The notes under the pieces: model-generated
What the model saw: the letters and a program-made list of their open reading frames with translations, nothing else
Told to the model about the DNA's origin: nothing
Database searches by the model: none
Position numbers and translations under genes: made by a program
Origin: Escherichia coli
Lineage (GTDB): Bacteria; Pseudomonadota; Gammaproteobacteria; Enterobacterales; Enterobacteriaceae
Assembly: GCF_003334785.1 (NCBI RefSeq)
Contig: NZ_QOWV01000012.1
Length of the DNA stretch: 64,000 bases
Reading direction: 5' to 3' (one strand)
Part shown: positions 3,508 through 24,675 of the stretch, in pieces
Layout of the letters: the number at the start of each line of letters is the position of its first letter
How positions within the stretch are numbered: position 1 is the first letter of the stretch

Positions 3508-5049
3508 GTGACTATGTTACAGATAGTCGGCGCGCTGATCCTGCTGATCGCAGGATTTGCCATTCTTCGCCTTTTGTTCAGAGCATTAATCAGCACGGCT
3601 TCTGCGCTGGCAGGGCTCATATTGCTGTGTCTGTTCGGCCCGGCCTTACTGGCTGGCTATATCACCGAACGCATAACCCGGTTGTTCCATATTCGCTGGC
3701 TGGCAGGCGTATTTCTGACGATTGCCGGAATGATCATCAGCTTCATGTGGGGACTTGATGGTAAACATATCGCGCTGGAGGCTCACACCTTTGACTCTGT
3801 GAAATTTATTCTGACCACCGCTCTCGCCGGTGGTCTGCTGGCTGTTCCCCTGCAGATCAAAAACATTCAGCAGAACGGGATCACACCAGAAGATATCAGC
3901 AAGGAAATTAACGGGTATTACTGCTGTTTTTATACTGCCTTTTTCCTTATGGCGTGTTCTGCATGCGCACCATTGATCGCGTTACAGTACGATATTTCAC
4001 CGTCACTGATGTGGTGGGGCGGGTTGTTGTACTGGCTGGCTGCATTAGTGACGCTGCTATGGGCGGCCAGCCAAATCCAGGCGCTGAAAAAACTGACCTG
4101 TGCCATCAGCCAGACACTGGAAGAACAACCGGTGCTCAACAGTAAATCGTGGCTGACCAGTTTGCAAAACGATTACAGCCTTCCTGACTCACTGACGGAG
4201 CGCATCTGGCTGACGCTCATTTCTCAACGGATTTCCCGGGGAGAGCTGAGGGAATTTGAACTGGCAGACGGAAACTGGTTACTGAACAATGCCTGGTATG
4301 AAAGAAACATGGCAGGGTTTAACGAACAGTTGAAAGAGAACCTGTCATTCACACCTGATGAACTGAAAACGCTCTTCCGGAACCGCCTGAATTTATCACC
4401 GGAAGCGAATGACGATTTTCTCGATCGTTGCCTGGACGGCGGTGACTGGTATCCCTTTTCAGAAGGTCGCCGTTTTGTATCATTCCATCACGTGGATGAG
4501 CTTCGTGTCTGTGCCTCCTGCGGGCTGACAGAAGTACATCATGCCCCGGAAAATCATAAGCCGGATCCGGAATGGTACTGCTCCTCTCTTTGTCGCGAAA
4601 CAGAAACACTGTGTCAGGAAATTTATGAACGCCCTTACAACAGCTTTATTTCCGATGCAACGGCGAATGGTCTGATTCTCATGAAACTGCCGGAAACCTG
4701 GAGTACAAATGAGAAAATGTTTGCTTCCGGAGGGCAGGGACATGGGTTTGCCGCTGAACGGGGAAACCATATTGTCGACAGAGTCCGTCTGAAAAACGCA
4801 CGGATCCTCGGTGATAATAATGCCAGAAATGGAGCAGACAGACTGGTCAGCGGAACAGAAATCCAGACGAAATATTGTTCAACTGCAGCCCGTAGCGTCG
4901 GTGCGGCATTCGACGGACAAAACGGACAGTATCGTTACATGGGAAATAATGGCCCCATGCAACTGGAAGTCCCCCGTGATCAGTATGCCGGCGCTGTTGA
5001 AACCATGAGGAATAAGATCCGCGAAGGTAAAGTAACCGCGCTGAAATGA
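3508..5049 (+). CDS. yeeR: CP4-44-type inner membrane protein YeeR homologue (513 aa)
   Basis: Hydrophobic N-terminal half; position after a flu remnant and before yeeS/yeeT/cbeA/cbtA mirrors the CP4-44 gene order. Confidence 0.6.
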   Translation: MTMLQIVGALILLIAGFAILRLLFRALISTASALAGLILLCLFGPALLAGYITERITRLFHIRWLAGVFLTIAGMIISFMWGLDGKHIALEAHTFDSVKFILTTALAGGLLAVPLQIKNIQQNGITPEDISKEINGYYCCFYTAFFLMACSACAPLIALQYDISPSLMWWGGLLYWLAALVTLLWAASQIQALKKLTCAISQTLEEQPVLNSKSWLTSLQNDYSLPDSLTERIWLTLISQRISRGELREFELADGNWLLNNAWYERNMAGFNEQLKENLSFTPDELKTLFRNRLNLSPEANDDFLDRCLDGGDWYPFSEGRRFVSFHHVDELRVCASCGLTEVHHAPENHKPDPEWYCSSLCRETETLCQEIYERPYNSFISDATANGLILMKLPETWSTNEKMFASGGQGHGFAAERGNHIVDRVRLKNARILGDNNARNGADRLVSGTEIQTKYCSTAARSVGAAFDGQNGQYRYMGNNGPMQLEVPRDQYAGAVETMRNKIREGKVTALK

Positions 5050-21801: not shown

Positions 21802-22704
21802 ATGAAACGAGTTATTACCCTGTTTGCTGTACTGCTGATGGGCTGGTCGGTAAATGCCTGGTCATTCGCCTGTAAAACCGCCAATGGTACCGCTATCCCT
21901 ATTGGCGGTGGCAGCGCCAATGTTTATGTAAACCTTGCGCCCGCCGTGAATGTGGGGCAAAACCTGGTCGTGGATCTTTCGACGCAAATCTTTTGCCATA
22001 ACGATTATCCGGAAACCATTACAGACTATGTCACACTGCAACGAGGCTCGGCTTATGGCAGCGTGTTATCTAATTTTTCCGGGACCGTAAAATATAGTGG
22101 CAGTAGCTATCCATTTCCTACCACCAGCGAAACGCCGCGCGTTGTTTATAATTCGAGAACGGATAAGCCGTGGCCGGTGGCGCTTTATTTGACGCCTGTG
22201 AGCAGTGCGGGCGGGGTGGCGATTAAAGCTGGCTCATTAATTGCCGTGCTTATTTTGCGACAGACCAACAACTATAACAGCGATGATTTTCAGTTTGTGT
22301 GGAATATTTACGCCAATAATGATGTGGTGGTGCCTACTGGCGGCTGCGATGTTTCTGCTCGTGATGTCACCGTTACTCTGCCGGACTACCCTGGTTCAGT
22401 GCCAATTCCTCTTACCGTTTATTGTGCGAAAAGCCAAAATCTGGGGTATTACCTCTCCGGCACAACCGTAGATGCGGGCAACTCGATTTTCACCAATACC
22501 GCGTCGTTTTCACCAGCGCAGGGCGTCGGCGTACAGTTGACGCGCAACGGTACGATTATTCCAGCGAATAACACGGTATCGTTAGGAGCAGTAGGGACTT
22601 CGGCGGTAAGTCTGGGATTAACGGCAAATTACGCACGTACCGGAGGGCAGGTGACTGCAGGGAATGTGCAATCGATTATTGGCGTGACTTTTGTTTATCA
22701 ATAA
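21802..22704 (+). CDS. fimH: mannose-binding fimbrial tip adhesin FimH
   Basis: MKRVITLFAVLLMGWSVNAWSFACKTANGTAIPIGGGSANVYVNLAPAVNVGQNLVVDLSTQIFCHNDYPETITDYVTLQRGSAYG...; 300 aa. Confidence 0.9.
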   Translation: MKRVITLFAVLLMGWSVNAWSFACKTANGTAIPIGGGSANVYVNLAPAVNVGQNLVVDLSTQIFCHNDYPETITDYVTLQRGSAYGSVLSNFSGTVKYSGSSYPFPTTSETPRVVYNSRTDKPWPVALYLTPVSSAGGVAIKAGSLIAVLILRQTNNYNSDDFQFVWNIYANNDVVVPTGGCDVSARDVTVTLPDYPGSVPIPLTVYCAKSQNLGYYLSGTTVDAGNSIFTNTASFSPAQGVGVQLTRNGTIIPANNTVSLGAVGTSAVSLGLTANYARTGGQVTAGNVQSIIGVTFVYQ

Positions 22705-22775
22705 AGAAATCACAGGGCATTGCTAATGCAGTTACGCAATATTACCTGAAGCTAAAAACCTGCACGTTAGCCCTT

Positions 22776-22813
22776 TGTAGGCCAGATAAGACGCGTCAGC
22801 GTCGCATCTGGCA
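22776..22813. repeat. REP-like palindromic element downstream of fimH
   Basis: tgtaggccagataagacgcgtcagcgtcgcatctggca resembles the REP consensus (GCC.GATGCG.CG...CGCATC.GGC). Confidence 0.5.
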
Positions 22814-22939
22814 TAAACAAAGCGCACTTTGCTGGTCTGTTCCCCTCACCCTAACCCTCTCCCCGGAGGGGCGAGGGGACTGTCCGGGCACATTTTTAGA
22901 CTTTGTCATCAGTCAGAGCCTGCCATTGGCAGGCTCTGG

Positions 22940-23131
22940 TGTTCTTTTACGCTACCTTGCTAATAATCAGCCCAACCACGGAGTTGACCAGCTCCAGCAG
23001 ACCCCAGGTTTTCAACGTGTCTTTTACTGACAGGTCAAAATTATCTAAGAGGCATTGCTAATGCAGCGAATGTGTCTGAACCTGCGGTCTTTGTCAGTAC
23101 CAGCATCAGGCCAATGCCGAATACCACCCAG
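22940..23131 (-). pseudogene. gntP: gluconate permease gntP remnant: first ~19 codons fused through ~55 bp of junction sequence to the last ~30 codons
   Basis: Minus strand reads MHVLNILWVVFGIGLMLVL, then [17 protein letters not shown] and a stop; downstream frame reads [29 protein letters not shown]; the ~1.1 kb transporter core is absent. Confidence 0.75.
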
Positions 23132-23204
23132 AGAATGTTAAGCACATGCATAACGTTTTACCTTACCTGGTTGAACCGTTGTTATTTTGGGCGACATGTT
23201 ATGT

Positions 23205-23222
23205 AAATTGGTCAACCATTGT
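23205..23222. promoter_or_regulatory. UxuR/ExuR-type operator (imperfect AAATTGGT..ACCAATT palindrome) upstream of uxuA
   Basis: aaattggtcaaccattgtt read from sequence. Confidence 0.45.
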
Positions 23223-23311
23223 TGCGATGAATGTCACATCCTCTGATCAATAACCATCGATTACCCTTTGCTGCAATTTGCAGCAACAACCATGAGAGTG
23301 AAATTCTTGTG

Positions 23312-23329
23312 ATGTGGTTAACCAATTTC
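23312..23329. promoter_or_regulatory. second UxuR/ExuR-like operator with adjacent TTGACA -35 element of the uxuA promoter region
   Basis: atgtggttaaccaatttc contains the palindrome TGGTTAACCA; TTGACA lies about 18 bp downstream. Confidence 0.4.
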
Positions 23330-23490
23330 AGAATTCGGGTTGACATGTCTTACCAAAAGGTAGAACTTATACGCCATCTCATCCGATGCAACGCCACGGC
23401 TGCGGTCTGGTTGTTCATCCGGATACCTAAACAACTCCAGGGTTCCGCGTCTCTTTGCTGTGGAACCCACTATGTGAAAGAGGAAAAATC

Positions 23491-24675
23491 ATGGAACAGA
23501 CCTGGCGCTGGTACGGCCCAAACGATCCGGTTTCTTTAGCTGATGTCCGTCAGGCGGGCGCAACTGGCGTGGTTACCGCGCTGCACCATATCCCGAACGG
23601 CGAAGTATGGTCCGTAGAAGAGATCCTCAAACGCAAGGCGATCGTTGAAGACGCAGGCCTGGTGTGGTCTGTCGTAGAAAGCGTACCAATTCACGAAGAT
23701 ATCAAAACCCACACTGGCAACTATGAGCAGTGGATCGCTAACTATCAGCAGACTCTGCGCAACCTGGCGCAGTGCGGCATTCGCACCGTGTGCTACAACT
23801 TCATGCCGGTGCTCGACTGGACCCGTACTGACCTCGAATACGTGCTGCCAGACGGCTCCAAAGCTCTGCGCTTCGACCAGATCGAATTCGCTGCATTCGA
23901 AATGCATATCCTGAAACGTCCAGGCGCGGAAGCGGATTACACCGAAGAAGAAATTGCTCAGGCTGCTGTTCGCTTCGCCACTATGAGCGACGAAGACAAA
24001 GCGCGTCTGACGCGTAACATCATTGCCGGTCTGCCGGGCGCGGAAGAAGGGTATACCCTCGACCAGTTCCGTAAGCACCTGGAGCTGTACAAAGATATCG
24101 ATAAAGCGAAGCTGCGCGAAAACTTTGCCGTCTTCCTGAAAGCGATTATTCCAGTTGCTGAAGAAGTTGGCGTGCGTATGGCGGTTCACCCGGACGATCC
24201 GCCGCGCCCGATCCTTGGCCTGCCGCGCATTGTTTCCACCATTGAAGATATGCAGTGGATGGTTGATACCGTAAACAGCATGGCGAACGGTTTCACCATG
24301 TGCACCGGTTCCTACGGCGTGCGTGCTGACAACGATCTGGTTGATATGATCAAGCAGTTCGGTCCGCGTATTTACTTCACCCATCTGCGCTCCACCATGC
24401 GTGAAGATAACCCGAAAACCTTCCACGAAGCGGCGCACCTGAACGGTGACGTTGATATGTACGAAGTGGTGAAAGCGATTGTTGAAGAAGAACACCGTCG
24501 TAAAGCGGAAGGCAAAGAAGACCTGATCCCGATGCGTCCGGACCACGGTCATCAGATGCTGGACGACCTGAAGAAGAAAACCAACCCAGGTTACTCCGCA
24601 ATTGGTCGTCTGAAAGGCCTGGCCGAAGTTCGCGGTGTCGAACTGGCGATCCAGCGCGCTTTCTTTAGCCGTTAA
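23491..24675 (+). CDS. uxuA: mannonate dehydratase UxuA
   Basis: [45 protein letters not shown]...; 394 aa from the internal Met. Confidence 0.9.

Follow-up and report, generated by a model that had tools for sequence, protein, structure and literature searches.

A decayed gntP remnant between fimH and uxuA of Escherichia coli, very probably an old and naturally occurring deletion allele

The stretch of DNA analyzed here (the window) is 64,000 nucleotides long and comes from Escherichia coli (contig NZ_QOWV01000012.1). Between fimH, which encodes the type 1 fimbrial adhesin (21802..22704, plus strand; assigned from its open reading frame and from the RefSeq annotation of identical sequence), and uxuA, which encodes mannonate dehydratase (23491..24675, plus strand; ORF list and annotation), lies a dead remnant of a sugar-acid transporter gene, about 200 bp in length. 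In K-12 the same slot is filled by gntP (b4321), a gene of the GntP family and the UxuR regulon that encodes a fructuronate/gluconate permease. The window retains only its first 19 codons and, at the other end, its last ~30 (22947-23151, minus strand), on the strand opposite to both neighbors. The 5′ remnant (23095..23151, minus strand) consists of the start codon, at 23149-23151, and the first 19 codons; it opens a frame of 36 codons that is not conserved, and its N-terminal peptide, MHVLNILWVVFGIGLMLVL, is identical to residues 1-19 of K-12 GntP. The 3′ remnant (22947..23039, minus strand) is a separate frame holding the last 30 codons and the stop, with 3 mismatches to K-12 in 97 positions, which is typical of the species. 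Between the two, and also on the minus strand, is a strongly diverged segment (23040..23094) that alignments place at K-12 codons ~392-412. An earlier note, written from the sequence of the window, had described gntP as cut down to its two ends with a core of ~1.1 kb absent, and had given N- and C-terminal readings of GntP; comparison with K-12 bears out the description, the loss being 1,113 bp, and both readings are correct. Set beside K-12 gntP, the remnant is alike in its first 19 codons and near-identical in its promoter region and 3′ end; it differs in that 371 codons are gone, the next ~21 are decayed and frameshifted, four more have been lost near the C-terminus through slippage, and no transporter would be encodable.

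The spacer between fimH and the remnant holds several features of its own. The first copy of a 16-nt repeat, GGCATTGCTAATGCAG, lies at 22716..22731, 12 nt past the fimH stop codon. Alignment, together with a sub-threshold naRNA4/REP match, places REP-like and GC-rich repeat elements at 22760..22895, and a terminator-like hairpin with a 13-bp stem followed by a T-run (22912..22949, plus strand; consensus scan only) lies downstream of fimH, touches the gntP stop codon and is kept as in K-12. A stretch of ~75 bp at 22836-22910, made up of a GC-rich, box-C-like repeat (CCCTCACCCTAACCCTCTCCCCGGAGGGGCGAGGGG) and adjoining spacer sequence, is present in the window and in K-12 and absent in strains E2348/69 and A33; in E2348/69 the REP arrangement directly after fimH also differs. 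The 3′ remnant of the window-type allele has lost 12 bp between two AATAATCAG repeats (window ~22957-22970), and with them four codons (VLII); it also shows an A-to-T change (Met to Lys). Neither change is found in the E2348/69-type allele or in K-12, and together they are further pseudogene decay by small-repeat slippage.

Comparison by BLAST with the fimH-gntP-uxuA interval of K-12 (NC_000913.3, 4548500-4552500; positions within this reference are prefixed L001) gave two blocks. The left block pairs window 22300-23039 with L001 807-1558 at 96.8% identity and reaches 105 nt into the 3′ end of gntP, and the right block pairs window 23094-23800 with L001 2740-3446 at 99.2% identity, running from gntP codon 19 through uxuA. 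At first sight, 54-55 bp stand between the blocks in place of 1,181 bp of K-12. Since these 54-55 bp are colinear with gntP beyond the left block, the real deletion lies further right than the BLAST gap. Its two end points are occupied in K-12 by copies of an 11-bp direct repeat, CAGTACCAGCA, at L001 1628-1638 and 2741-2751; the copies fall in codons 17-20 and 388-391 of the intact gene, and the repeat occurs exactly twice in the 4-kb K-12 locus, where 0.01 occurrences are expected. What has been lost between them is 1,113 bp, or 371 codons, in frame. A single copy survives and forms the deletion junction (23095..23105, an 11-nt match to L001 1628-1638), with no inserted DNA, colinear gntP to its left and gntP codons 1-16 to its right. 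The earlier note had proposed that alignment to the K-12 interval would define the breakpoints, and it is this alignment that sets them at the CAGTACCAGCA copies.

Deletions of this type have a familiar counterpart in lacI, where spontaneous deletions between short direct repeats are said to have been described by Albertini and colleagues in 1982. As there, copies of a repeat, here of 11 bp, flank the lost interval and one is left at the junction; the one considered here, however, has persisted in nature, where it stands at ~16% frequency, and the sequence on one side of its junction is hyper-diverged, a feature that laboratory deletions lack. We suggest that in an ancestor with an intact gntP the 1,113 bp would have dropped out between the two 11-bp copies of CAGTACCAGCA, one copy staying behind, and that the process was slipped mispairing or some other RecA-independent recombination between short direct repeats, a suggestion drawn from junction anatomy only. 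Such an event, with subsequent decay, would have left codons 1-19 and the last ~30 codons, with ~55 bp of badly decayed gntP between them; afterwards the allele would have split into at least two classes and recombinants between them, on flanks typical of the respective phylogroups.

The segment at 23040-23094 is, as its alignments show, native gntP sequence (about codons 392-412), diverged to about 70-75% identity and colinear with the 3′ remnant. Against gntP it shows 14-19 substitutions in 55 aligned nucleotides (25-35%), together with deletions of 13 nt and 1 nt. For the E2348/69 and A33 alleles, local alignment of the junction with gntP gives 30 identities in 40 positions, a score reached by at most 1 of 5,000 shuffles, and the gntP match is the best plus-strand match of these segments in the whole 4-kb locus. 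The window's own allele has a shorter match (14 of 17), with a score attained by 49 of 5,000 shuffles (p about 0.01). Among 80 gntP orthologue loci from other species, the twelve top-scoring all match at the same position in the gene, and a chimeric test query is aligned by BLAST without a break to intact genes (85.2% identity), from which it differs in length by 14 nt. At the codon level, K-12 LVL-ATAAGSNTLTHINDAS has become LVL-AMTAGSDTF(-1 nt)YISNAS in the remnant, where the 13-nt deletion follows; K-12 AAGSNTLTHINDAS is the counterpart of TAGSDTF-YISNAS. What had previously been called a non-coding junction is better described as colinear, diverged gntP. It had also been conceded that the junction might turn out to be native gntP and the gene merely a short paralogue: the former is so, and the latter is not. 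As this locus shows, what looks like "filler" where a deletion is joined may be decayed native sequence.

No full-length gntP reading frame of 447 codons is present. With 1,113 bp gone, a frameshift beyond them and a stop after 36 codons, gntP is here a pseudogene and not a functional member of its family. Fructuronate is imported by GntP, as is gluconate, although the latter is of lower relevance; the route for hexuronates is ExuT. We infer that a transporter cannot be encoded and that GntP-mediated uptake would be lost. The divergent gntP/uxuA control region (23152..23490) differs from K-12 at 1 of 339 positions and has no gaps, and uxuA and uxuB are intact; since the divergent promoter/operator region and uxuAB are untouched, hexuronate catabolism and regulation should be normal, the predicted loss being confined to GntP-dependent uptake. 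An effect of the deletion on uxuA/gntP control, which had been thought possible, finds no basis in so conserved a region. In K-12, genomic SELEX detected a single UxuR binding site, and it lies in the gntP-uxuA spacer (PMC5934670).

The allele is widespread. In a population sample of 5,426 complete E. coli genomes, the junction is present in 851 (~16%, about one in six) and the whole 901-bp interval is found in one piece in 847, while full-length gntP is present in 4,532-4,536. The junction occupies one place per genome and is never found elsewhere in the genome or on plasmids; it also occurs in 22 metagenome contigs. Two allele classes can be told apart, one like that of the window (~667 genomes, including ATCC 8739 and O26 and O103 STEC) and one like that of E2348/69 (~183 genomes), and the flanks of each match the phylogroup haplotype of its own strain; the two lineages are presumably phylogroups A/B1 and B2. 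Carriers come from humans, cattle, poultry, dogs, wild animals and water. One metagenome contig (OQIF01001629.1) is a recombinant of the two classes: the left half of its segment (ATTA...GCAGC) is of type 1 and the right half (GTCATTG) of type 2, and the 12-bp deletion of the 3′ remnant is absent. Carriage across species was considered for the most divergent-looking metagenome contig (L109) and rejected, the contig being plain E. coli.

Taking the anatomy and the distribution together, we regard the gntP remnant, with high confidence, as a naturally occurring, old and non-functional deletion allele (a pseudogene) of the fructuronate/gluconate permease gene. A different origin was implied when a 15-bp repeat was said to bound the remnant. 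The 15-mer, GGCATTGCTAATGCA, does have exactly two occurrences in the 64 kb of the window, where 0.01 would be expected, and its first copy is at 22716-22730 as the earlier note had it; the second is at 23051-23065, 20 nt away from the reported 23031-23045. The two copies bracket only the fimH-gntP spacer and the 3′ fragment, and the deletion end points in K-12 are the two CAGTACCAGCA 11-mers. It is nevertheless conceivable that the repeat made the deletion, either between its copies or by supplying the junction as filler, copied through template switching from the DNA immediately past fimH. In full the match spans 16 nt, a length attained by none of 500 shuffles within ±3 kb and so beyond chance in this window, and in an 18-nt core all four differences from K-12 gntP shift towards the sequence downstream of fimH. 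The copies can also recombine with each other, as a metagenome contig (OIEU01002450.1, ~3597-3611) suggests: there the fimH stop region is joined to the diverged segment via CATTGCTAATG, so that the spacer and the 3′ remnant are taken out of an otherwise colinear E. coli contig. That deletion is a later, secondary one, seen once, and since no complete genome carries it, it is rare or possibly an assembly artefact. Against a causal role of the repeat, its copies lie off the end points of the 1,113-bp loss, and the entire junction is colinear with gntP well beyond the 16-mer. The gntP-side copy (23051-23066) sits in the decayed segment, where K-12 GCATCGTTAATG has become GCATTGCTAATG, and no gntP-internal copy of the full 15-mer was found at the breakpoint in any of the five intact Escherichia alleles examined. 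The fimH-side copy is polymorphic among strains, and the variant with the longer match (13-16 nt) is present in SFAD3 as well, a strain in which gntP is intact; in the older-looking class, that of E2348/69, the repeat core is only 11 nt long, as reached by 16 of 500 shuffles (~3%). A short templated correction from the fimH side may have taken place, yet chance is adequate to account for the repeat, and we consider it highly improbable that the repeat caused the deletion. A mobile-element footprint was likewise considered and rejected, the 335 bp between the 15-mer copies being plain fimH-gntP spacer and gntP 3′ end, colinear with K-12.

That the remnant might be the scar of a laboratory knockout is suggested by a deletion that is clean, internal and in frame and that keeps both ends of the gene. 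The population data exclude an engineered origin for practical purposes: the identical junction is shared by ~850 complete genomes of wild isolates from many hosts and countries and by the 22 metagenome contigs, and it exists in two diverged classes with recombinants. The junction is itself derived from gntP and shows no trace of FRT, lox or cassette sequence, and over its first 25 kb the window matches natural isolates (dog, food, human and poultry) at ~100% identity. Of the earlier proposal of a lineage-specific or engineered deletion, the tie to particular lineages holds and the engineering falls away, given ~850 of 5,426 natural genomes and no scar sequence. We think it very unlikely, although somewhat less so than engineering, that the remnant has gained a new function, be it through the 36-codon frame (the first GntP transmembrane helix plus a tail) or through a regulatory RNA made from the intact, UxuR-controlled gntP promoter. 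The promoter and start codon are kept and the frame is open in the window. It is not conserved, however; in E2348/69, and also in a metagenome contig (L099), codon 8 is changed from TGG to the nonsense codon TGA, and 4-5 of the ~17 tail residues differ between the classes. A search of the interval against Rfam gave no family at the gathering threshold, with weak sub-threshold matches only, and the folding energy of the repeat and junction is unremarkable (z-scores -0.6 to +0.5). The segment, moreover, evolves at a neutral rate.

How the segment came to be so diverged is a harder matter. Between deletion and intact alleles, the 3′ remnant differs at 2-3 of 97-109 positions and the 5′ remnant at 1 of 57, while the segment differs at 15-17 of 51 with 14 further gap positions; for the same segment, E. 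albertii and K-12 differ at 6 of 65. The divergence is too great for a simple, recent slippage: with 14-19 differences in 55 aligned positions, the Jukes-Cantor (JC) distance of the segment from intact alleles is 0.31-0.46. One reading, to which we give roughly a one-in-three standing, is that the allele predates the E. coli phylogroups and may go back to the split from E. albertii, and that the segment has decayed neutrally. The two deletion classes differ in it by JC ~0.10, and the third positions of uxuA in the same genomes differ by 0.08-0.09; since the two distances are equal, the segment appears to be evolving neutrally, and the deletion would predate the split of the two lineages. Third positions of E. 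coli and E. albertii differ by 0.28 in uxuA and 0.39 in gntP, so that on the same clock the distance from segment to intact alleles equals or exceeds that between the species. The substitutions are rich in transitions (10:3) and break conserved motif residues (H-I-N-D to Y-I-S-N), as is expected after loss of function. On this account the flanks would have been overwritten continually by recombination with intact alleles, in keeping with the polymorphisms that the 3′ remnant has in common with intact alleles and with the existence of a recombinant haplotype; the junction stretch would have escaped, because recombination across the heterology would restore the gene. There are difficulties. With just 55 sites the error of the clock is wide; the boundary is sharp, lacking any gradient; the allele is not found in representative genomes of other Escherichia species; and a neutral polymorphism is unlikely to live so long without balancing selection.

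The sharp boundary (the final 40 nt of the 3′ remnant are free of mismatches, after which divergence is ~30%) is no worse a fit to one complex event than to gradual decay, and it does not discriminate between the two accounts. It is about equally plausible that the segment arose in one event at or near the time of the deletion, either by conversion of a short patch, the donor being a gntP homologue (unsampled, diverged or already dead), or as a cluster of break-repair errors. Segment and deletion are in complete linkage in the 5,426 genomes and in the metagenomes: a chimeric query found no intermediate allele, with the segment in an undeleted gntP, among the former, and a junction-specific pattern found none among the latter. 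Against such an event stands the failure to find a donor. Sensitive BLAST with the junction matched only the junction itself within E. coli and nothing on plasmids; an exact 22-mer scan of 100,044 species representatives gave no donor in another species; and Smith-Waterman comparison with 80 orthologue and paralogue loci (from Escherichia, Citrobacter, Klebsiella, Edwardsiella, Yersinia, Gilliamella, actinobacteria and others) gave none closer than E. coli's own gene, at ~76% identity. Patchwork templating from nearby DNA was also sought, and only the known 11-16-nt match was found; a 22-mer of the segment has no second occurrence in the window even with 3 mismatches allowed. Two candidate sources were rejected: a gntP-like fragment on a plasmid, in which the segment is ordinary and resembles the intact gene, and the divergent intact allele of SFAD3, in which the divergence lies mid-gene, outside the segment. 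Break-repair errors would need a rate of ~30%, which is far beyond that of known polymerases, and as the two classes are still diverging at the neutral rate, a burst is unnecessary.

Of these two accounts, that of an old, neutrally decaying allele would make the locus a small natural case of a long-lived gene-loss polymorphism in E. coli. One may go further and speculate that the deletion is an ancient presence/absence polymorphism which, if the 55-bp segment is read as a neutral clock, is no younger than the split of E. coli and E. albertii, and which selection (balancing or niche-dependent) on the gut uptake of fructuronate/gluconate has kept in E. coli for that long; we hold this stronger version to be rather unlikely. 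If it were true, recombination would have erased the signal of age everywhere except in the stretch protected by the junction.

The feature has been touched on by annotation. A pseudogene labelled "GntT/GntP/DsdX family permease, incomplete" by RefSeq/PGAP (for example AYN42_RS23910 and H4J01_RS25880) is the same feature and is found in hundreds of genomes; PGAP marks only the 3′ piece of 93-108 nt and misses the 5′ piece, the diverged middle and the deletion mechanism. Many RefSeq records label the remnant merely "hypothetical protein". Annotation pipelines are inconsistent in this respect, and the 5′ half is overlooked. Full-text searching of the literature found no description of this allele. 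The remnant is, then, a pseudogene of a well-known gene, made by a well-known mechanism and already flagged in RefSeq; the hyper-diverged relic and its bearing on the age of the allele are the only non-trivial residue. In practical terms, GntP is lacking in ~16% of sequenced E. coli (among them the EPEC prototype E2348/69, ATCC 8739 and O26/O103 STEC), a fact that bears on metabolic models, on studies of sugar-acid niches in gut colonization and on the use of K-12 gene content as a reference. Sweeney et al., in Infect Immun in 1996, are said to have found that E. coli F-18, when given gntP of K-12, gained a new niche in the intestine; this suggests that natural strains without functional gntP were noticed long ago.

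Other losses of gntP occur beside the fim island, and these are independent, through insertion sequences or large deletions. In EECO1006 (NZ_CP090319.1) a gntP otherwise identical to that of K-12 is broken by an IS1 insertion. In 23AR1101 (NZ_CM132250.1) a copy of ISKpn26 (IS5 family) truncates the remnant, cutting it inside the diverged segment; the place of fimH is taken in this strain by a tyrosine recombinase gene, and the locus has thus been replaced on its fim side. In Shigella the whole region including the gntP locus has been lost (PMC4374849), by a large deletion, whereas the gntP remnant reflects an internal deletion between short repeats.

The plasmid fragment mentioned above (NZ_CP081720.1, 3001-3381) is a 381-bp 3′ piece of a gntP-like gene, 84.5% identical to K-12 and located among IS26, IS3 and higBA genes on a 147-kb plasmid; ~32 plasmids in the collection carry such a fragment. 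In the record of ATCC 8739 (NZ_CP022959.1), an IS3 transposase gene occupies positions 1-150 of the extracted locus, directly upstream of fimG, where fimF would be expected, and the fim operon in this record appears to be disrupted. The intact gntP of SFAD3 is 94.9% identical to that of K-12, and its mismatches cluster in a 400-bp block in the middle of the gene (~660-1080 from the 3′ end, with up to 9 per 60 nt) that looks like an imported recombination tract.
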